Shown piece by piece: positions 40,401 to 49,459 of a DNA stretch of 64,000 nt. Numbering within the stretch: position 1 is the stretch's first letter; every line of letters begins with the position of its first letter. A program made the position numbers and the translations under genes. Where the stretch lies: positions 71,059 to 135,058 of the forward strand of contig CAIJYD010000111.1 of NCBI GenBank assembly GCA_903824785.1, in the 5' to 3' direction. This stretch comes from an uncultured Bacteroidota bacterium. Its GTDB lineage: Bacteria; Bacteroidota; Bacteroidia; Bacteroidales; VadinHA17. Under the pieces are notes generated by a model. That model made no database searches, was not told the DNA's origin, and worked only from the letters and a program-made list of their open reading frames with translations.

Positions 40401-43400
40401 CTAAAAACTAAGCCTTAAGCCTGTAATAATATTCCGCATGAGCGGAGTATCGCTGATCCCGATTTCAGGATCCCATCCTTGCCATTTGGTCCAGACGTAT
40501 GGATTCTTACTTGAAACATAAATCTGACATGACTTCAGTTTTAATTTATCCAAAGCTCTCTGGCCCAGATTATAAGCAACCGAAACATCCTGTAATCTTA
40601 CAAAACTTCTGCTTTGATAGATTCCGCTTTGTCTCAAAGGATTATTATAAATTGCTGTTGTGTTGGTTGTAGGCGCATCGGGTCTCCAGTAAGCATTAAT
40701 TGCTGAGTTGTTCATTCTCTGTTGCATATAATAAAGTGGATTTATCATTGCAGCATTATCAGCTAAGTAATGATTATCACCTCCCTGTATTGAGTTAATA
40801 AAGAAAGAGAAGTTGAAATTTTTATAGGATAAAGTATTGTTAATACTGAATCTGTAACTTGGGGCACCGTATCCAATGATTTTTCTGTCTAAAGTAGGTT
40901 CAATCAGCAAGTCGCCATTCTGATCAACATATTTGAACTGACCGGGATACCAGCCTGCAAGAATAGTACGATTGAATAACTCTTCCTCGGACCAAACTCC
41001 TCCAGCCATTTCATAATCATATTTAGCAGATATTGGCTCACCAACAAACCATCCGTTACCGACATCTTTGTCGTTTTCACCACCATACAGTTTACTGATC
41101 TTATCTCTGTTCAAAGAGAAGACAAAACTGCTTTCCCATTTAAATACTCCATCAAAATTGATTGACTTTAGTTCAATCTCAACACCTTTATTATCAACTT
41201 CTCCCATATTTGCCCAGACACTTGCATATCCTGATGAAGGAGGAAGTTGTCTCTTAACCAAAACATCTGAGGTTTTAGCTGTGTAAACATCAATAGATCC
41301 TGTAATTCTGTTTTTCAGAATGCCAAAGTCAATTCCTGAATTGAATGATGCTGTTGTCTCCCATCCAAGATTTGCATTGGATAAAGAACTTGGATAAAGA
41401 GCGGTAGCTGTTGTTGAACCATATACATAATAAGTTGTTCCCATAGTTGATAAACTTGAGTAACGTCCGATTCCCTGGTTCCCGTTTTTACCATAAGATG
41501 TTCTTACTTTCAGATAAAATCCGAGATCTTTAAGAAATGGCTCATTGGAAGCAACCCATGCAAGAGAAGCAGAAGGGAATGTTGCCCATTTATTACCTGC
41601 TCCAAATCCTGAATAACCGTCTCTTCTTATAGTACCTGTAAACATATACCTTGACATAAAGGAATAGTTTATACGAGCCATATATGAAAGACTATTTTCT
41701 TCGTACCCTGATGATGCAACAGTTGCAATGGTACCAAGTCCCATATTATTATACCCAAGAGCTTCATTTTCAAATCCTTTTGCAGTTAGGGTTGAGGCAC
41801 TTCCATTAAGGTTTTCCCGGCTGAAAAGCAGAGTTGAATTAACCTGATGATTTCCAAAAGTCCTGTTGTAAGAGACAATATTATTAACGATCCAGTTTCT
41901 TCTTTCTGAAGGATTTTTGATCGCATATCCTTTGTTTTCTACACCTGCAGGTGTTCTGCTGTTATGATATGAATTAACATTCGCATTGTTGTATGTCTGT
42001 GAATAATTAAGTTCATATTTTAACCCTTTCACCCATGGGACAGTTATTTTAGCACTTCCTACTGCATACAATTCGTTGTTTACATTCAAATTATCAACAA
42101 ATAAATTAGCAAGAGGATATGGCTGGAATAATTCGCCACCCAGGTAGATATCATATTTTTCAGAACCAATGTTGTTATTTACCAATGGACTGGCAATTCT
42201 TGCACTGGAAAGACTTGCAGCAAGCCCTGAGTTGTCGCGGTATGAATATGATGTATTTAATCCAAGAGTAAGCCAGCTGTTAACTACGCTTTCCAGGTTA
42301 CTACGAACAGTTGTTCTTTTAAATTCATCATTAAGCTGGATACCATTAACATCAGAATATGATGTTGAAAGGAAATAAGATAATTTTTCAGAACCACCCT
42401 GAAGACTAAGATTATAATTCTGAATAGGGGCTACACGAAGAACCTCTTTTACCCAGTCAATTTCATTTCCGGCAAGATAATTCTGCTGCTCTTCATAAGT
42501 TCTAAGATGTGAAGAAACAACATTCCTGTTGGTAACGTCTGGTCTTACAGGTTGTCCTGCAACGCTTGTTGGGTTTGTTTTATACCAGGTATATAAATTC
42601 TCCTGATAATCCCAGTCAGCTAGCCTTGTTGCGAATTCATCTGAATTCATTACTCTCATAGGATTATTGGTCATATCCTGAAAACCTTTGTACATATCAA
42701 AAGAGATAACAGGTTTTTGTGTTTTTCCTTTTTTGGTTGTTATAAGGAGGACCCCGTTTGAAGATCTTGATCCATAAACCGCTGCAGAACTAGCGTCTTT
42801 AAGTATATCTATTGTTTCTACGTCGCTGATGTTAATGTTTGAGATAGACCCGTTATAGATAACACCATCGAGAACAATTAATGGCTGATCTGATGCTGAT
42901 AAAGAAGTCTGCCCCCTGATTGAAAGAGATGGTTCGCTGTATGCGCCGCCTCGTCCTTCAATATTAACACCTGCAGAAGCACCAGATAAGGCCTGAGAAA
43001 GGTTTACGTTTGCCTGAGAAACTTTATCAGCCATTGTTATTCTTGCTACAGAACCTGTTAAGTCACTTTTTTTCTGAGTACCATAACCAATAACGATAAC
43101 TTCATCAAGCCCGATTGAGGACTCAACCATAGTTACGTTAATCTGGGTCAGTGCACCAATAGCGACCTCCTGAGGTTCCATTCCAATAAAAGTGAATGTA
43201 AGGCTCTTGGCTCCATCAGTAATATCGATAACATATTTACCGCTGATATCAGTAATGGTACCTTTGGTAGAACCTGTTATTACTACGTTTACACCTGGAA
43301 TAGGGCCATTCTTGTCGGCAACAATACCAGATACCATTTTTTGCTGAGGAGCTTCCGGAATTACTCCAAATTGCTCATTTGAAGTAAGAATAACCTGCCG

Positions 43401-43742
43401 GTCATAGACAGCGTATTTTACTTTTTCTTTAAAGATATCATCTAAAATATCTTTAATAGTCTCATTTTCTGCATCAATAGTAACATTTCTATCAACGTCG
43501 ATCAGCTTAGGACTATAAAGGAAAAAAAACTCGCTCTGATTTTCAATTGCTTTAAGGGCTTCTGAAATTTTAACATCGTCAAGTTTAAGATTTAGCTTAG
43601 TCAGCTGAGAATAGGACTCAGTTGCCCAGAGCTGAATAATTGTAAAAAACGATAAAAACAGGGTTAGCTTCATGACTTTGATTGTTTTTTTTGATAAGAA
43701 TCCAAAAGAAATCCTATCATAATAATCTCGAAATTTTTTCAT
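40401..43742 (-). CDS. susC: SusC/RagA family TonB-linked outer-membrane transporter with an N-terminal signalling (STN) extension
   Basis: STN-like ISEALKAIENQSEFFFLYSPKLID. CarboxypepD_reg VSGIVADKNGPIPGVNVVITG..GTITDISGKYVI. Plug GYGTQKKSDLTGSV...PLIVLDGVIY..ILKDASSAAVYGSRSSNGVLLITTKKG. The barrel ends in GLRLSF. An alternative start at M24 (43673) gives a canonical signal peptide. Confidence 0.92.
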   Translation of the reverse strand: MKKFRDYYDRISFGFLSKKTIKVMKLTLFLSFFTIIQLWATESYSQLTKLNLKLDDVKISEALKAIENQSEFFFLYSPKLIDVDRNVTIDAENETIKDILDDIFKEKVKYAVYDRQVILTSNEQFGVIPEAPQQKMVSGIVADKNGPIPGVNVVITGSTKGTITDISGKYVIDITDGAKSLTFTFIGMEPQEVAIGALTQINVTMVESSIGLDEVIVIGYGTQKKSDLTGSVARITMADKVSQANVNLSQALSGASAGVNIEGRGGAYSEPSLSIRGQTSLSASDQPLIVLDGVIYNGSISNINISDVETIDILKDASSAAVYGSRSSNGVLLITTKKGKTQKPVISFDMYKGFQDMTNNPMRVMNSDEFATRLADWDYQENLYTWYKTNPTSVAGQPVRPDVTNRNVVSSHLRTYEEQQNYLAGNEIDWVKEVLRVAPIQNYNLSLQGGSEKLSYFLSTSYSDVNGIQLNDEFKRTTVRSNLESVVNSWLTLGLNTSYSYRDNSGLAASLSSARIASPLVNNNIGSEKYDIYLGGELFQPYPLANLFVDNLNVNNELYAVGSAKITVPWVKGLKYELNYSQTYNNANVNSYHNSRTPAGVENKGYAIKNPSERRNWIVNNIVSYNRTFGNHQVNSTLLFSRENLNGSASTLTAKGFENEALGYNNMGLGTIATVASSGYEENSLSYMARINYSFMSRYMFTGTIRRDGYSGFGAGNKWATFPSASLAWVASNEPFLKDLGFYLKVRTSYGKNGNQGIGRYSSLSTMGTTYYVYGSTTATALYPSSLSNANLGWETTASFNSGIDFGILKNRITGSIDVYTAKTSDVLVKRQLPPSSGYASVWANMGEVDNKGVEIELKSINFDGVFKWESSFVFSLNRDKISKLYGGENDKDVGNGWFVGEPISAKYDYEMAGGVWSEEELFNRTILAGWYPGQFKYVDQNGDLLIEPTLDRKIIGYGAPSYRFSINNTLSYKNFNFSFFINSIQGGDNHYLADNAAMINPLYYMQQRMNNSAINAYWRPDAPTTNTTAIYNNPLRQSGIYQSRSFVRLQDVSVAYNLGQRALDKLKLKSCQIYVSSKNPYVWTKWQGWDPEIGISDTPLMRNIITGLRLSF

Positions 43743-43836
43743 AGATTTGGATGGATTAAGTTTACTAAAGTTTTTAAGAGAAATCAGGTTCTTAGTCTGG
43801 CGGGATAGTGTGTCACCACTGTCCTGCTTTTTTTTT
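43742..43836 (+). ncRNA. Candidate cis-antisense sRNA (DonS-like): promoter box to terminator
   Basis: TAGATTTG (43742-43749) fits the Bacteroides -7 consensus TAnnTTTG on the + strand. The terminator at 43800-43836 would give an RNA of about 80 nt complementary to the susC 5' leader. No -33 element recognised. Confidence 0.3.
43800..43836 (+). terminator. Plus-strand intrinsic terminator in the fecR-susC spacer, antisense to the operon
   Basis: 11-bp stem GCGGGATAGTG / CACTGTCCTGC with a 6-nt loop, then nine T (43828-43836). Two stem positions are G-U wobbles in plus-sense RNA but C-A mismatches in minus-sense RNA. Confidence 0.5.
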
Positions 43837-43886: not shown

Positions 43887-44975
43887 CTATTTGTTTTTTT
43901 TCGTTAAGATGACCTTTCTTTTTGCAAAAGTTCCGTTTTCTGTCACTTCCCGGTTCGAAATTGTATAACTGACAGGTGTCATTAGTGTCATAAGTTCCAT
44001 TACCTGAGGGAGTGTTTCATTTACAAATGTAGCAGTATAATTAAGCTCATTTAATTCAACATCTCTTATCTGTATGTCAACATTGAACCATCTGCTTAAT
44101 TTCCTGATAACCTGATCCATTGGTTCCGCATTAAAGATAAGTTTACCAAATCTCCATGAATAATAGCGGTTATCATTAATAGACCTTGTGGAAACCTCTT
44201 CACTAATCTTCTGGTAAACAGAAATATCGGTTGGTTTCATTACACGCAATGAGGAAGCTATACCCTTGGCGGATGGTTTCTGCAGTTCAACCATCCCTTT
44301 AATCAGGGAGATCTCAATATTATCTTCCTCAGGATAGGCCATAATGTTAAAAACTGTACCACGGGCGACAACCTGTAACTTGCCGGCTGTTACAATAAAA
44401 GGAACTTTTGAATTTGGTATCACCTCAAAATATCCTTCACCGTTAAGTTCCACCTTACGACTATTCCCACTGAAAAATGCAGGATACTTCAATGAACTGT
44501 TATGATTAAGCCACACACCTGAACCATCGGGCAATGTAACTTTTGTAATGGCGTCAACTGAGGAAAAAACTTCATTATACACCTGATTTACAGCAATATA
44601 ATCATACCTGGATGTCTCATACTTATAAGACATATAGAATCCGAAACCGAGAGCCGGCAGCAAGAGTACTGCTGCTGCCCTGAGAAGAATTTTCATAAAA
44701 TACTCTCTTCTTCTGAAATTAACAATATTATGATTTGATTTCTTCAGGATTTTTTTCGATTCTGAAAGATTTATTTCATGATGTATCCTTCCAAGCAAAT
44801 GGTCAAAATCAATCTGATTATTGCCCTCTTCCACCGCTAATTCATCCCATAGCTGCAATAAGACCGATTTGCCTTGTGGTGTTCTGGCTGATTCTACGAA
44901 CCATTCCAGCACAGAATCCAATTCCTCTCCCGAACAACTATTATTGCAATACTTTGTTAACAGTTCCTTATTCAT
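43887..44975 (-). CDS. FecR family anti-sigma factor
   Basis: 362 aa with an N-terminal cytoplasmic region, a single TM (AAVLLLPALGFGFYM), a periplasmic FecR domain and a C-terminal WFNVDIQI-type domain. It lies directly upstream of the STN-bearing SusC. Confidence 0.85.
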   Translation of the reverse strand: MNKELLTKYCNNSCSGEELDSVLEWFVESARTPQGKSVLLQLWDELAVEEGNNQIDFDHLLGRIHHEINLSESKKILKKSNHNIVNFRRREYFMKILLRAAAVLLLPALGFGFYMSYKYETSRYDYIAVNQVYNEVFSSVDAITKVTLPDGSGVWLNHNSSLKYPAFFSGNSRKVELNGEGYFEVIPNSKVPFIVTAGKLQVVARGTVFNIMAYPEEDNIEISLIKGMVELQKPSAKGIASSLRVMKPTDISVYQKISEEVSTRSINDNRYYSWRFGKLIFNAEPMDQVIRKLSRWFNVDIQIRDVELNELNYTATFVNETLPQVMELMTLMTPVSYTISNREVTENGTFAKRKVILTKKNK

Positions 44976-45154
44976 TATTTAATCGTATTATTTTGATTAA
45001 CAAGCACCTTCGGCAAATGCCGGAAGTGCTCGATTACCATGTTAACCAATTTTACCAAACCTAATTCTAAATAGTTAGACGCAGGAGATTGTATTTACCA
45101 CTACCTGCAAATGGATAAAAATGAATAATAATTAAAAGTATTTTTTAATGATAT

Positions 45155-45261
45155 GGGGTTGAAGGGGTTGAAGGGGTTGAAAGGGTTGAAAGGGTTGAAA
45201 AATGGCTTGCGGTTTGCGGTGTGCGGCGAAGGTTAAAGGGGTTGAAGGGGTTGAAAGGGGG
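45155..45261. repeat. Composite direct repeat, copy A
   Basis: Five tandem 9-mers (3x GGGGTTGAA, 2x AGGGTTGAA), then AAATGGCTTGCGGTTTGCGGTGTGCGGCGAAGGTTAAA, then 2x GGGGTTGAA. Confidence 0.9.
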
Positions 45262-45346
45262 AGGATATGGTAATTTAAAGTATCGTAACCGGATCTGGAG
45301 ATCCTTCGCTGGCGCTCAGGATGACAGGACTTTATGGGATCACATA

Positions 45347-45421
45347 GGGGGAAAGAAGTGGCGATTCGAAGAAAACTAGCGTTCAGGACAAATTGTTGGC
45401 GAATCGCCACTTCTTTCCCCC
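45347..45421. repeat. Perfect 22-bp inverted repeat with 31-nt spacer
   Basis: GGGGGAAAGAAGTGGCGATTCG (45347-45368) and CGAATCGCCACTTCTTTCCCCC (45400-45421) are exact reverse complements. Confidence 0.9.
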
Positions 45422-45761
45422 ACCCCCCGTCCTATGATACGAATTGTCATCCCGAATTCCTTCGCCGTCCTCATTTTAAGTCAACCTCTATATCAATATG
45501 GGCGAATGAATGAGGGATCTCCCTCTCTTATGACGACATTGATTAAAAGCTCATAATGTGCAAGTTATAAGATGTTGTTATTAGTAGCACAGTGAGGGAT
45601 TTCTGATTGGAAGAATGATAATTGTTTGCAGAATAAAGGCCATTCCAATGCGGCAGAGCACCGCAATATTAAATCCCAACCAATTATCAAGTGCAAATAT
45701 AAATAATCCAAACCAATAAGACAGAAAGTCACCTTTTACCTTAGGTCGCTATTTCAATGAA

Positions 45762-45841
45762 GGGGTTGAAGGGGTTGAAGGGGTTGAAAATGGCTTGCGG
45801 TTTGCGGTGTGCGGCGAAGGTTAAAGGGGTTGAAGGGGTTG
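45762..45841. repeat. Composite direct repeat, copy B
   Basis: 3x GGGGTTGAA, then AATGGCTTGCGGTTTGCGGTGTGCGGCGAAGGTTAAA, then GGGGTTGAAGGGGTTG. The core of about 60 nt is identical to copy A except for a one-nt A-run length difference. Same orientation, 607 nt from copy A. Confidence 0.9.
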
Positions 45842-45857
45842 TTTATTAAGGTATGTA

Positions 45858-46445
45858 CTAAACAAAAAGATAGCAGAATAGTAAGACTGTAAGGGAGTAG
45901 TTGCCTAGTTTTTCGCGGATCGTTTTAAGTGCGCGCGACATATGGTTTTCTATGGTGTTTTCAGAAATATTCAGGCGTTCTGAGATGTCGCTATATTTCA
46001 GACCTTCAACTCTGTGCAGAATATAAACCTCCTTCTGACGTTTGGGTAATGACTCAAGTATTTTATCAAGTTTATCAGAAAGTTCGTTATATTCAAGTTC
46101 CACATTTGCAGGTTCCTCGTTAATTTCCTGAAGAGACTTTAAATAATCAACAAATTCAGTATCCCTGACTTTCTTCCGCAGGTTGGATATAGCCAGATTG
46201 TAAGCTATGGTAAATACATAAGATTTAATTGAAGAGCCCTTGTTAACTCTTTTGCGACTTTGCCATAAATTAAGAAAAACATCCTGGATCAGATTTTCTG
46301 TCTCTTCCTGAGATTTAAGAAGTGAATAGCCGAATTTATATAATCTCGCTGAATACTTTTTATATAATAGATCAAAAGCAAACATATTGTCTGCCTTAAT
46401 CTCCTGCATTAATTCTTCATCACTATATGAAATAAAATCTTTCAT
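45858..46445 (-). CDS. ECF-type RNA polymerase sigma-70 family factor
   Basis: 195 aa. Region 2 (LIQDVFLNLW, YVFTIAYNLAISNLRK) and region 4 HTH (LPKRQKEVYILHRVEGLKYSDISERLNISENTIENHMSRALK). Confidence 0.9.
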   Translation of the reverse strand: MKDFISYSDEELMQEIKADNMFAFDLLYKKYSARLYKFGYSLLKSQEETENLIQDVFLNLWQSRKRVNKGSSIKSYVFTIAYNLAISNLRKKVRDTEFVDYLKSLQEINEEPANVELEYNELSDKLDKILESLPKRQKEVYILHRVEGLKYSDISERLNISENTIENHMSRALKTIREKLGNYSLTVLLFCYLFV

Positions 46446-46858: not shown

Positions 46859-47185
46859 CTACAGACTAATTGCTTCAAAAAACAGAGTAAATGTAGCAGT
46901 ACCAACCAGTTTGAAATCAACTCCGGCAAGGAGAGAGGAACGCGGGGTCATTCCATTTGCCTTAGTTTCATCCCGGCTCTTTTTAAGCTGACCACTAATA
47001 ATTGTTGCGGAATTTATAGCTAATGAGGTGGTGTTGATAACAACAGACCCAACAGATCCGGATAAACCGGACAAACTTCCCGGAGATATTCTACCTGTCA
47101 ATTCGCCCTTCTGGGCATTAGTTTTAACCGGCAATAAAATCAATAAACAAACCAAACCCAACTGAATGACTTTATTTTTTTTCAT
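46859..47185 (-). CDS. Small secreted protein, function unknown
   Basis: Clear signal peptide MKKNKVIQLGLVCLLILLPVKTNAQ. The mature part is Ser/Gly/Thr-rich and beta-prone. 66 nt downstream of the 735-aa membrane protein. Confidence 0.45.
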   Translation of the reverse strand: MKKNKVIQLGLVCLLILLPVKTNAQKGELTGRISPGSLSGLSGSVGSVVINTTSLAINSATIISGQLKKSRDETKANGMTPRSSLLAGVDFKLVGTATFTLFFEAISL

Positions 47186-47251: not shown

Positions 47252-49459
47252 TTAGAAATGATATACCTTCAGCAAAATATAGACTAACGCCGGAATACCT
47301 GCTATCACAAACAAACCAAGCAGTGGCTGATCAGGGTTCTTCTTTTGAAGGTCAGATATCAGCTCTTCCCAATAATGCTTCCCTTCCTGTTCATATTTGT
47401 AAATATCAAAATTGAAGAGGATAAAATAGGTCCATATTGTTACCGATGCTATGGAGATAAGTAAACTGAACCCAAGTATCGCAAAGATAAGTCCGAGTAT
47501 TCTCAGAATATGATCTTTAATACCAGCCTTCAGGTTGCTTTGCTGGGCAACAATATTACTCTTCTCTTTCTGATAACTGATTATCAATGCGTTTCTCTCA
47601 TCCTTCAATGATGCCAACGTGCTTTTCAATTTTGCCATGTAAGTATTTGCAGCCTGTATAGTATAAAACAAGAATGGCCTCTGATAAGAAATTGATTCAG
47701 CTTTCTCATCTTCAATTTTAACTGCTGTAACCGGTTCACTTCCCACAGCTGACATTACCGAGACCAGAATTCCGGCCCAGTTGCTTGATTCCCCATTTTC
47801 CTTTGTCCCTTTTACTCTTACCGTTCCGGGTGTATTACCCCACTTAATATTGATATTATCGCCCTGGGCAGAGACTACTATTGCACCCTCAGGAATCTGC
47901 CATGAATAGGTTTCAAAACCTTTCTGTGCAATATATTTTTCAACATTACCTGTATATACACTTGTCTTGCCTGATGGAGCAGAAATACGCGGTTTCTGAG
48001 GAGGCTTATCATTTACCCTTACATTCAGACTGACTACAGAAGCATCGGTACAACTATTTGATGGAATGACAGATACTGTATAACTTCCGGTTCTTTCCCA
48101 TCTGTTGCTTATTTCATTAAGCGAAGCAAATGTCCTTATTATTCTATTGGTAAAATTATCTTTAATCTCCCATTTGAAATTCGGGCAGCTTTTGTTTTCA
48201 GGAATAGTAAATATCTGAGATTCCCCGACAAATGCATCACCTTCGAAGGTAAATATCTCGTTTTCTTTTATGAGTTTCCGTAATGCTATAGCCTCATCCA
48301 TCTTTGCATTAATTTTAAAGACATCATTCGCTAATTTAACTGTATCAGTCTGAAGCTTCTGTTCGAGCTTAATTAAACTTGTATCAAGTATTTTTATCTC
48401 TTTCCTTTTTTCAAATATTACAGGCACATGCACGGGCAATTTAACAATCTCACTCTGCCACTGCTGCGAACTTTTCTGGGTTGTAAGTTCAATTCCTGAA
48501 AGTAAAAAATAAGAAATTAAGAAAGGTATTAGAGCAGCAACCCCTAACCCTATTATCTGAAAAGGCTGCGAGAAAATCAATTTGGGAAGTCTGACAAATA
48601 TCTCTTTAAGAAAATCCTGAACTTTGATTTCACCATTTTTGGAAGCAAGGTGCGGAGCCAGATAAAACACCGACAAAATAACCGCTGCCAGCAGTAAAAC
48701 AGCAAGTGGCACAATAACCTGAGAAAGAGACACCCCTAATCCGCTAACCAGATGTTTTTCAGCATATTCCCTTAATAAAGCAATAATGCCGGCAGAGGAA
48801 GCCGAGATAGCCAGCCAGATAAGATTTACTTTCAGACTTGGCAAAACCCAGAATTCACTATAATTATCACTCCGGTAAAATACTACAGAGGAGTAAACAA
48901 GATACTGAAGGAGAAAGAACAATCCTGCAATTCCTGCATAAAGAATAATTCCGGAATTAAATAAAGAATATAAAATCCAGACCAAAGATAATGACCCTGA
49001 CAGTATCAGAACACTCTTAAAAGCATGAATAAAATTGTTTATCGTAAACAAAGGCTTAATCAACCTTAGTGCAAATTGAAAAAACTTCCAGGAGAAAATA
49101 ATAATGTAGTACCACAGAAGTTTTATTAAAGAGAAGAGTGTCGGATGCAAAACTTCCTTCCAGATCCAGCTTAATACCCACCAGAGCCTTGATATTAAAA
49201 AACCGATAAACTCAAATATTGAAGTGAATCCATATATACCCCATACGAAAAGATTGTAAATAAAAGCCAGAATACTGAATAGAGGGGTAAACCGGCTGAT
49301 CCAGGTGTTAGGTTCAAGCCATTTACGGGTAATCTGATCTACTTCAAGCAGATTTTTAACAGGCTTTCCATCTATGGAAAAACGAATGAATCCTATTAAT
49401 GGCAAAGCTGCAATTATTGCAGGATAGATTTGCGAAAATAAAAGTTTAATTAAACTCAT
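47252..49459 (-). CDS. Large polytopic membrane protein with coiled-coil and Ig/PKD-like modules, unassigned
   Basis: 735 aa. About 9 N-terminal TM helices. A soluble region of about 320 aa has heptad-like stretches and two beta-rich modules (..CPNFKWEIKD...GSYTVSVIPSNSC...; ..YSWQIPEGAIVVS.QGDNINIKWGNTPGTVRVKG..). Two C-terminal TM helices. Confidence 0.65.
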   Translation of the reverse strand: MSLIKLLFSQIYPAIIAALPLIGFIRFSIDGKPVKNLLEVDQITRKWLEPNTWISRFTPLFSILAFIYNLFVWGIYGFTSIFEFIGFLISRLWWVLSWIWKEVLHPTLFSLIKLLWYYIIIFSWKFFQFALRLIKPLFTINNFIHAFKSVLILSGSLSLVWILYSLFNSGIILYAGIAGLFFLLQYLVYSSVVFYRSDNYSEFWVLPSLKVNLIWLAISASSAGIIALLREYAEKHLVSGLGVSLSQVIVPLAVLLLAAVILSVFYLAPHLASKNGEIKVQDFLKEIFVRLPKLIFSQPFQIIGLGVAALIPFLISYFLLSGIELTTQKSSQQWQSEIVKLPVHVPVIFEKRKEIKILDTSLIKLEQKLQTDTVKLANDVFKINAKMDEAIALRKLIKENEIFTFEGDAFVGESQIFTIPENKSCPNFKWEIKDNFTNRIIRTFASLNEISNRWERTGSYTVSVIPSNSCTDASVVSLNVRVNDKPPQKPRISAPSGKTSVYTGNVEKYIAQKGFETYSWQIPEGAIVVSAQGDNINIKWGNTPGTVRVKGTKENGESSNWAGILVSVMSAVGSEPVTAVKIEDEKAESISYQRPFLFYTIQAANTYMAKLKSTLASLKDERNALIISYQKEKSNIVAQQSNLKAGIKDHILRILGLIFAILGFSLLISIASVTIWTYFILFNFDIYKYEQEGKHYWEELISDLQKKNPDQPLLGLFVIAGIPALVYILLKVYHF

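Follow-up and report, generated by a model that had tools for sequence, protein, structure and literature searches.

Organization of the sigma-fecR locus

The window analysed here is a stretch of 64,000 nucleotides from contig CAIJYD010000111.1 of an uncultured Bacteroidales bacterium (assembly GCA_903824785.1), and all positions below refer to it. On its minus strand, a gene for an extracytoplasmic function (ECF) sigma factor is followed by a gene for a FecR-type anti-sigma factor (fecR) and by a gene for a SusC-like transporter. The DNA between the sigma and fecR genes is the subject of this report. The three genes were assigned by their Pfam domains.

45858-46445, minus strand: ECF sigma gene, 195 aa (Sigma70_r2, Sigma70_r4_2 and Sigma70_ECF)
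43887-44975, minus strand: FecR-type anti-sigma gene, 362 aa (FecR and FecR_C)
40401-43742, minus strand: SusC-like transporter with an STN signalling domain

The gap between sigma and fecR covers positions 44976-45857 (882 bp). An earlier note on this DNA had described it as free of convincing open reading frames (ORFs) and as bounded by two direct repeats, A and B, and both descriptions hold. The longest ORFs of the gap (92, 59 and 55 aa) have no Pfam match, and the two repeats are identical at 82 of 85 positions, with B lying 12-16 nt after the sigma stop codon and A ending about 175-180 nt before the fecR ATG. The higher G+C content reported for the interval was likewise reproduced, with values of 0.41-0.49 over positions 45100-45600 versus 0.27-0.31 in the nearby spacers, one 5' of sigma and one separating fecR from susC. 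Two metagenome contigs from other assemblies (L055 and L056) match the sigma gene and the entire interval at 100% identity, and L056 additionally spans part of fecR; therefore, the interval is probably not an assembly artefact.

Spacing of sigma and fecR in orthologous loci

The window was compared with 28 orthologous loci from one family and three genera, which have the same gene order and whose proteins are 52-78% (sigma) and 45-64% (FecR) identical to those of the window. The sigma-fecR spacers of these loci range from 112 to 406 bp (median about 245), against which the 882 bp of the window are an outlier. The premise of the earlier note that sigma and anti-sigma genes are normally adjacent and coupled does not apply to this group, since adjacency or overlap was found in none of the 28 orthologues and fecR is preceded by a promoter candidate of its own (see below). 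For the other FecR pairs of this genome, the gaps are estimated at -4, 273 and 438 bp. The 28 spacers contain no small gene.

In most orthologues, an AT-rich stretch of about 50 nt separates the sigma stop codon from the -35-like block of the promoter candidate, compared with 753 nt in the window. Removal of positions 45151-45845 reduces the latter to about 67 nt of AT-rich sequence, and the comparison places the extra DNA exactly between repeat B and repeat A. Thus, the segment that the note had taken for an insertion is indeed a lineage-specific one of ~695 bp, which is absent from the orthologues and has its junctions at the repeats. The same stretch is enlarged to 109-250 nt in four other species (L063, L075, L023 and L072) by unrelated GC-rich, partly palindromic DNA, which in L023 includes a short run of TTCAACNNN 9-mers. 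Because these four species hold unrelated inserts at the same spot, the sequence comparison argues that the sigma-fecR site is a recurrent landing place that tolerates insertions, and not the seat of a purpose-built device.

Promoter candidates and the fecR leader

Two conserved elements were identified in the native part of the spacer, next to fecR.

45074-45104, minus strand: ECF-type promoter candidate, GTAGTGGTAA (45104-45095), 13 nt, CGTCTAAC (45081-45074), recognized by its conservation
45002-45031, minus strand: fecR leader hairpin, GAGCACTTCCGG-loop-CCGAAGGTGCTT, located 26 nt before the ATG, with conserved pairing

The promoter candidate has the consensus GTAGTGGTAA-N13-CGTCTwA in the orthologues, where the second block, in its longer form tGCGTCTwA, corresponds to window positions 45083-45074. 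Both blocks occur with hardly any change in nearly all 28 orthologues of the three genera, their flanks are variable, and their spacing is -35/-10-like. The relaxed pattern GTGGTAA-N10-22-CGTC has five matches in the genome, and the full GTAGTGGTAA-N13-CGTCTAAC arrangement occurs only at this locus. We infer from this conservation that the blocks represent an ECF-type promoter of fecR.

A G/T-rich tract with GGTTAG/GGTTTGG-like repeats, which is common to the ortholog spacers, lies between the promoter candidate and the leader hairpin. The hairpin itself recurs in the orthologues as a 12-bp stem (AAGCRCTTCCGG-loop-CCGGAAGTGCTT) 25-35 nt 5' of the start codon. Across 18 orthologues, 97% of the cells of the stem alignment are paired, and seven of the twelve pairs vary only via G-U wobble. 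Such variation is possible only in sense-strand RNA; the RNA fold of the native spacer has a z-score of -2.8. In some species the hairpin is followed by a U-rich tail, which would suit a role in attenuation or in stabilising the 5' end, and a paralogous pair on contig C51 of the genome has a similar leader. The conserved fecR 5' region as a whole comprises window positions 45002-45104 (minus strand) and the orthologous loci L022-L084. No literature description was found for a conserved GGTTAG-rich leader with an RNA hairpin.

Upstream of sigma, most orthologues have a clear TAnnTTTG housekeeping -7 box about 20 nt 5' of the ATG (e.g., TAACTTTG, TAGCTTTG and TATATTTG), and the window has only imperfect matches (TAAATTTA, about 50 nt upstream); a scan with the sigma-70 consensus is uninformative for Bacteroidota. 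Among the polysaccharide utilization loci (PULs) of Bacteroides thetaiotaomicron, 24 of the 26 ECF-sigma genes are transcribed from housekeeping sigma-AB promoters, and the anti-sigma and Sus-like genes from ECF-dependent promoters (Martens 2009, PMC2709373). The locus studied here resembles these PULs in its order of sigma, FecR-type anti-sigma and SusC with an N-terminal signalling domain, in the housekeeping-type box seen at the sigma genes of the orthologues, and in the separate conserved promoter candidate before the anti-sigma gene. It differs in belonging to uncultured environmental Bacteroidales and in that its promoters are deduced from conservation alone. Because the sigma genes of the orthologues have a housekeeping-type box and fecR has an ECF-type candidate of its own, sigma and fecR-susC appear to form separate transcription units, as in the Bacteroides model. 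The proposal of the earlier note that an inserted element uncoupled the pair is thereby not supported: the two genes are separately spaced in all orthologues, and nothing would be uncoupled by the insert because it lies upstream of the fecR promoter candidate.

Composition of the insert

The insert (45151-45845) occupies the space between the two putative transcription units and consists of the following parts, from the sigma side to the fecR side.

45758-45841, plus strand: repeat B, (GGGGTTGAA)3 + ATGGCTTGCGGTTTGCGGTGTGCGGCGAAGGTTAAA + (GGGGTTGAA)2, 82/85 identical to repeat A
45620-45757, no strand assigned: single-copy DNA of about 135 nt, with only a self-match in the genome
45523-45619, plus strand: accessory module M5, with 87-93% identical copies on contigs C70, C126, C41 and C78
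45297-45522, plus strand: orphan palindromic element of ~226 nt, its inverted repeat I1 100% complementary
45266-45296, plus strand: accessory module M3 (GGTAATTTAAAGTATCGTAACC + GGATCT), common with C70:9666-9712
45151-45265, plus strand: repeat A and a longer 9-mer array, the duplicated portion being 45169-45253

A BLAST search of the interval against its own genome, which the earlier note had proposed as a test of copy number, resolved it into a mosaic of mostly multi-copy modules that are often found at contig ends. Copies of the palindromic element and its modules, 87-93% identical, occur at four or five other sites, mostly contig ends, and in tandem on C70. Repeats A and B are built of GGGGTTGAA 9-mer units that flank a ATGGCTTGCGGTTTGCGGTGTGCGG core (TGCGG); a core of 52 nt is 100% identical between the two and is absent elsewhere in the window and the genome. 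The single-copy segment 45620-45757 has one weak 21-nt match (E 0.001) to the 5' end of the unit with a GIY-YIG nuclease gene at locus L206, described below. A diverged copy of the native fecR leader or of an orthologous spacer was considered for this segment and rejected, local alignment giving scores no better than those of shuffled sequences.

The strong predicted structure of the interval and the mechanical existence of its 92-aa and 55-aa ORFs could be read as signs of a product acting on the sigma/anti-sigma pair, either a structured non-coding RNA or a small protein. However, a search of the region with Rfam 15 at permissive thresholds returned only hairpin matches to microRNA models, which are spurious, at 22-35 bits against gathering scores of 62-114 bits, and the ORFs, besides having no Pfam match, run through repeat units. 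Moreover, all parts of the segment except the stretch of about 135 nt are multi-copy and stand in unrelated contexts, and the orthologues lack the whole of it. Such a product is thus highly improbable.

The palindromic element

The orphan element comprises an arm (45297-45327) that resembles the SRM/NTS repeats introduced below, a perfect 22-bp hairpin (45347-45368/45400-45421), and an inverted arm with an expanded loop (45444-45522). In relatives, its canonical form is 172-174 nt long and reads GGAGATTCCTCGCT..CGCTCGGAATGACA, spacer, 22-23-bp hairpin, spacer, TGTCATTCCGAGCG..AGCGAGGAATCTCC. Folded as single-stranded DNA, the element has a z-score of -6.2. A comparison of 15 copies from nine genomes shows 97% pairing in the main stem; 7 of its 18 pairs differ on both sides, and hardly any G-U pairs occur. 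Because both sides change in Watson-Crick fashion with almost no G-U pairs, this pattern points to an element that evolves at the DNA level, rather than to an RNA structure.

The central hairpin pattern has more than 118 matches in metagenome-assembled genomes (MAGs) of uncultured Bacteroidales from fens, peat, permafrost, lake sediment and soil. Of 301 Bacteroidota genomes sampled from 144 genera, 73 (in 40 genera) have the arm motif, compared with none for the reversed control, and a search for the arm sequence as a literature string returned only primer coincidences. Classification as a classical miniature inverted-repeat transposable element was rejected: inverted arms are present, but none of the six copies inspected showed a short duplication of fixed length, and neither a transposase nor a master copy lies between arm pairs in the genome. 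A ~97-bp unit that includes a GAGATCCTTCGC-loop-GCGAGGAATCTC hairpin is arrayed in tandem, with up to five copies per array (C122:25768-26267, C70:9666-10218, C33:11800-12000, L057 and L151). Many assembly contigs end in such ~97-bp modules, and their true copy numbers are consequently underestimated.

The earlier note had also raised the possibility of an added regulatory layer. As an insulator or attenuator, the insert would stop, pause or cleave read-through transcripts from sigma, which would lower the basal level of the anti-sigma factor and shift the set point of the switch. The candidate stops are the perfect 22-bp hairpin (a possible RNase III substrate), the SRM-like hairpins, and a G-quadruplex motif at 45155-45194 on the plus strand, i.e., the template strand, which is the only canonical motif of this type in the interval. 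The insert folds strongly, the arrangement is unchanged in two other metagenome assemblies, and read-through is plausible, given that the orthologues show no GC-rich terminator hairpin in the 50 native nucleotides that follow sigma. Nevertheless, in a terminator scan the gene strand of the insert showed no hairpin-plus-T-run terminator at any position; the single site reported within the insert is a 5-pair stem on the plus strand opposite the genes (45397-45409). The palindrome bears the marks of DNA-level evolution described above, and fecR retains its conserved promoter candidate downstream of the insert. In addition, the quite different inserts of four other species, together with a strain variant that has other modules at the insert site (L057), speak for tolerance rather than for a selected device. 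We therefore regard regulation by the insert as unlikely.

Association with a small GIY-YIG nuclease

Clustering of the ORFs located beside 80 hairpin matches revealed a single recurrent neighbour, a stand-alone GIY-YIG protein of ~100 aa (Pfam PF01541), whose gene lies 110-430 nt from the hairpin in 7 of the 80 MAG loci. Within the close subfamily of this protein (at least 65% identical to the copy in the window genome), arm motifs are present no more than 600 nt upstream in about 17 of 19 genes of the genus, and in all nine inspected loci the palindromic element, truncated in one of them, is located 165-200 nt upstream of the start codon. For the distant GIY-YIG subfamily, arm motifs were found upstream of none of the 11 genes in the genus. 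The element and the close subfamily also co-occur across genomes (Fisher p = 0.003). The only small GIY-YIG gene of the window genome (C122:25359-25664, ~102 aa, PF01541 E 5e-16) encodes a protein whose best relatives in the PDB are UPF0213 proteins (E 4e-6), and five tandem ~97-bp arm-hairpin modules are situated directly upstream of it, at a distance of about 100 nt.

Small GIY-YIG single-strand-specific nucleases that are flanked by their own hairpin repeats have been described as Ssn by Chenal et al. 2025 (PMC11893778); the repeats are named NTS in Neisseria and SRM in general, as exemplified by SsnA and the NTS/dRS3 repeats of Neisseria meningitidis. Aligned with three 1-nt gaps, the canonical arm TGTCATTCCGAGCGAAGCGAGGAATCTCC agrees with the Neisseria NTS consensus CGTCATTCCCGCGMAVGCGGGAATCYRG at 23 of 28 positions. 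The arms share with NTS a GTCAT head, a TTCC...GGAA stem and a GAA-type loop, and like the repeats of the Ssn system they are intergenic, multi-copy, directional and physically tied to a small GIY-YIG gene. They differ from NTS/SRM in the tandem G.A mismatches of the arm stem, and the arrangement departs from the Ssn system in that two arms are combined in a palindrome of ~170-226 nt around a separate 22-bp hairpin, the window copy being gene-less. We accordingly refer to the arms as SRM-like and to the local enzyme as a putative Ssn-like nuclease.

A further parallel exists with the repetitive extragenic palindromic (REP) sequences of Proteobacteria, their bacterial interspersed mosaic elements (BIMEs) and the associated RAYT (TnpA-REP) enzymes, an analogy that was also made by Chenal et al. 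2025 (PMC11893778). Both groups combine short stable hairpins with other motifs in mosaic intergenic blocks; orphan copies are numerous and genes for the enzyme scarce, and the blocks, which are found at gene ends, cause breaks in draft assemblies. In contrast to REP/BIME-RAYT, the enzyme here is a GIY-YIG nuclease instead of a Y1 transposase, and the mosaic includes tandem arrays of 9-mers.

Tandem 9-mer arrays

Arrays of the 9-nt unit NNNGTTGAA, from the same repeat family as A and B, occupy about 25 intergenic loci of the genome, often beside a AATGGCWTGCGG module or joined to a AATGGCTTGCGG(T)GTGCGG module, and all arrays of at least four units are intergenic. The 9-mer pattern has 68 matches in the window genome, 111 in one genome of another family, and none in most genomes; the reversed-pattern control gave no match in either array-rich genome. 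The second of these genomes (G327, from the same order) mostly has GTTGAA(A/T)TG units, for example on its contigs C1 (28041-28100) and C4 (30352-30438), and most members of the window's own genus have no NNNGTTGAA arrays. This distribution looks like independent blooms.

Further intergenic families of 9-nt or 18-nt arrays in the window genome have TTGCACGAC, CGACTTGCATGACCTGCA and CCTTGAATA-like units. They are located, for instance, at C63:5006-5085, C93:30525-30726, C52:43720-43760 and C108:12379-12590, and some adjoin GGGTTGAA arrays. A period of 9 is the commonest among the tandem repeats of the genome (349 of 1841 calls by Tandem Repeats Finder, TRF). Dispersed arrays of heptamers, called STRR, are said to have been described in heterocystous cyanobacteria by Mazel and colleagues in 1990. 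Like them, the 9-mer arrays are scattered over intergenic regions, have a short unit, and are patchily distributed among genomes; they differ in the 9-nt length of the unit, its frequent junction with a module, and their occurrence in another phylum. We know of no function for either type of array.

Origin of the flanking repeats

In related genomes, six GIY-YIG units each lie between direct repeats, which measure 60-134 bp with an identity of 88-100%. These repeats are locus-specific, with one shared only by two orthologous sites, and four of the six have no arm motif; judged by their sequences, they look like long target duplications, which are not mentioned by Chenal et al. 2025 (PMC11893778). 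Two species of the genus (L206 and L208) have intact GIY-YIG units at the same host site with a flanking duplication of 72-74 bp, which is the apparent 3' end of a host coding gene (ending ...GGAAATGTAGATTTCAGGAAATTGCCGTTTTAA); this insertion was either inherited or site-specific.

The window presents a similar configuration: the duplication of 85 bp lies on either side of an interior of 504 bp, which is collinear with the 5' part of the GIY-YIG units (M3, the palindromic element and M5) and has no counterpart of the ~300-bp GIY-YIG gene. We infer that repeats A and B arose by target duplication. A more specific and tentative reading, possible although we would not rely on it, is that the interval is the fossil of a transposition by an Ssn-type unit into a 9-mer element, with a target duplication of ~85 bp and a nuclease gene that was lost or never carried. 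Several observations weigh against the overall explanation favoured in this report (see the end). The interior contains no trace of a GIY-YIG gene: no degraded copy was found in the interval by tblastn, by three-frame translation, or by blastn against the GIY-YIG region of the genome, and its segment of about 135 nt remains unexplained. The published SRM motif, HGTCWYN(0-2)YYVSBRHN(0-5)WNVSBRGN(0-2)RNCYNB, misses the arms, and its 14 matches in the genome are near background. An empty-site allele was not found in this species among the contigs that encode an identical sigma or FecR. Finally, repeats A and B belong to a dispersed repeat family, so that homologous recombination could also yield a flanking duplication.

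Of the contigs with an identical sigma or FecR, some agree completely with the window, and others (L054, L057, L234 and L235) end or switch at the repeats; the latter may be real variants or assembly chimeras. On one of them (L054, ERZ27313532 k141_381925), which was compared with C111:22268-22987, the sigma gene is identical and the 9-mers of repeat B (window 45820-45846) run into the array at C111:22957-23010. The junction skips 93.8 kb including fecR and the whole PUL, and represents either a deletion variant produced by recombination between arrays or an assembly chimera.

Recombination among dispersed 9-mer arrays might alone have produced A, B and the interior, by Campbell-type integration of an array-bearing circle or by unequal exchange, and with no part played by a nuclease-associated element. 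The abundance of the arrays, as counted above, is compatible with this route, as is the junction of repeat B with an array 93.8 kb away on the same contig, unless that junction is chimeric. On the other hand, the 52-nt core of A and B is unique to the locus, so that the assembly holds no donor array with that core, and the GIY-YIG units of relatives show long locus-specific duplications at sites that lack any repeat family. Purely recombinational origin is therefore improbable, in our estimate even more so than a regulatory role of the insert.

Neighbouring features

Upstream of sigma, the minus strand encodes a 108-aa ORF (46859-47185) and a polytopic membrane protein of 735 aa with a weak PKD_6 match (47252-49459), and both are linked to the sigma gene in every metagenome contig that carries it. 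The fecR-susC spacer contains a terminator-like hairpin followed by eight T residues (43799-43828) on the plus strand, opposite to fecR and susC.

Proposed scenario and implications

Taken together, the 882-bp gap is best explained, with good though not complete confidence, as a regulatory spacer of ~190 bp, which is ancestral and common to all orthologues, to which a nest of non-coding repeats, selfish or neutral, has added ~695 bp. This nest would spare both promoters and most likely affects signalling little or not at all. Sigma would have a promoter of the housekeeping type. In the ancestral arrangement, its stop codon would be followed after about 50 nt by the ECF-type promoter candidate, and then by the structured leader with its hairpin before fecR-susC. 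The insert would have landed in the single short AT-rich stretch between the two units. A 9-mer-array/TGCGG element downstream of sigma would have been split by the arrival of a ~500-bp unit consisting of the palindromic element with its two SRM/NTS-like arms and the 22-bp central hairpin, and about 85 bp would have been duplicated in the process, giving repeats A and B. The copy in the window may be a gene-less relative of the GIY-YIG unit or one that later lost its gene. Because the insert leaves both promoters intact, it is presumably neutral for signalling, and the locus probably represents an ordinary, harmless repeat insertion of a recently described kind.

For the understanding of PULs, these findings amount to a correction: a long sigma/anti-sigma spacer is normal in this ortholog group and holds a promoter candidate and an RNA leader hairpin, and the extra DNA of the window would be a passenger. 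The locus also exemplifies SRM/NTS-like hairpins together with a small GIY-YIG nuclease in uncultured environmental Bacteroidales, here in the form of a composite palindrome with a long flanking duplication. The repeat nest itself is of a known kind, and the long flanking duplication may be the one aspect that is new. If the flanking repeats are indeed long target duplications, they would bear on how Ssn/SRM units spread and would help to explain breaks in draft assemblies and MAGs. If the interval is in fact a fossil of transposition, Ssn/SRM units would be mobile by an unusual mechanism that makes very long target duplications, a property unreported in Chenal et al. 2025 (PMC11893778).

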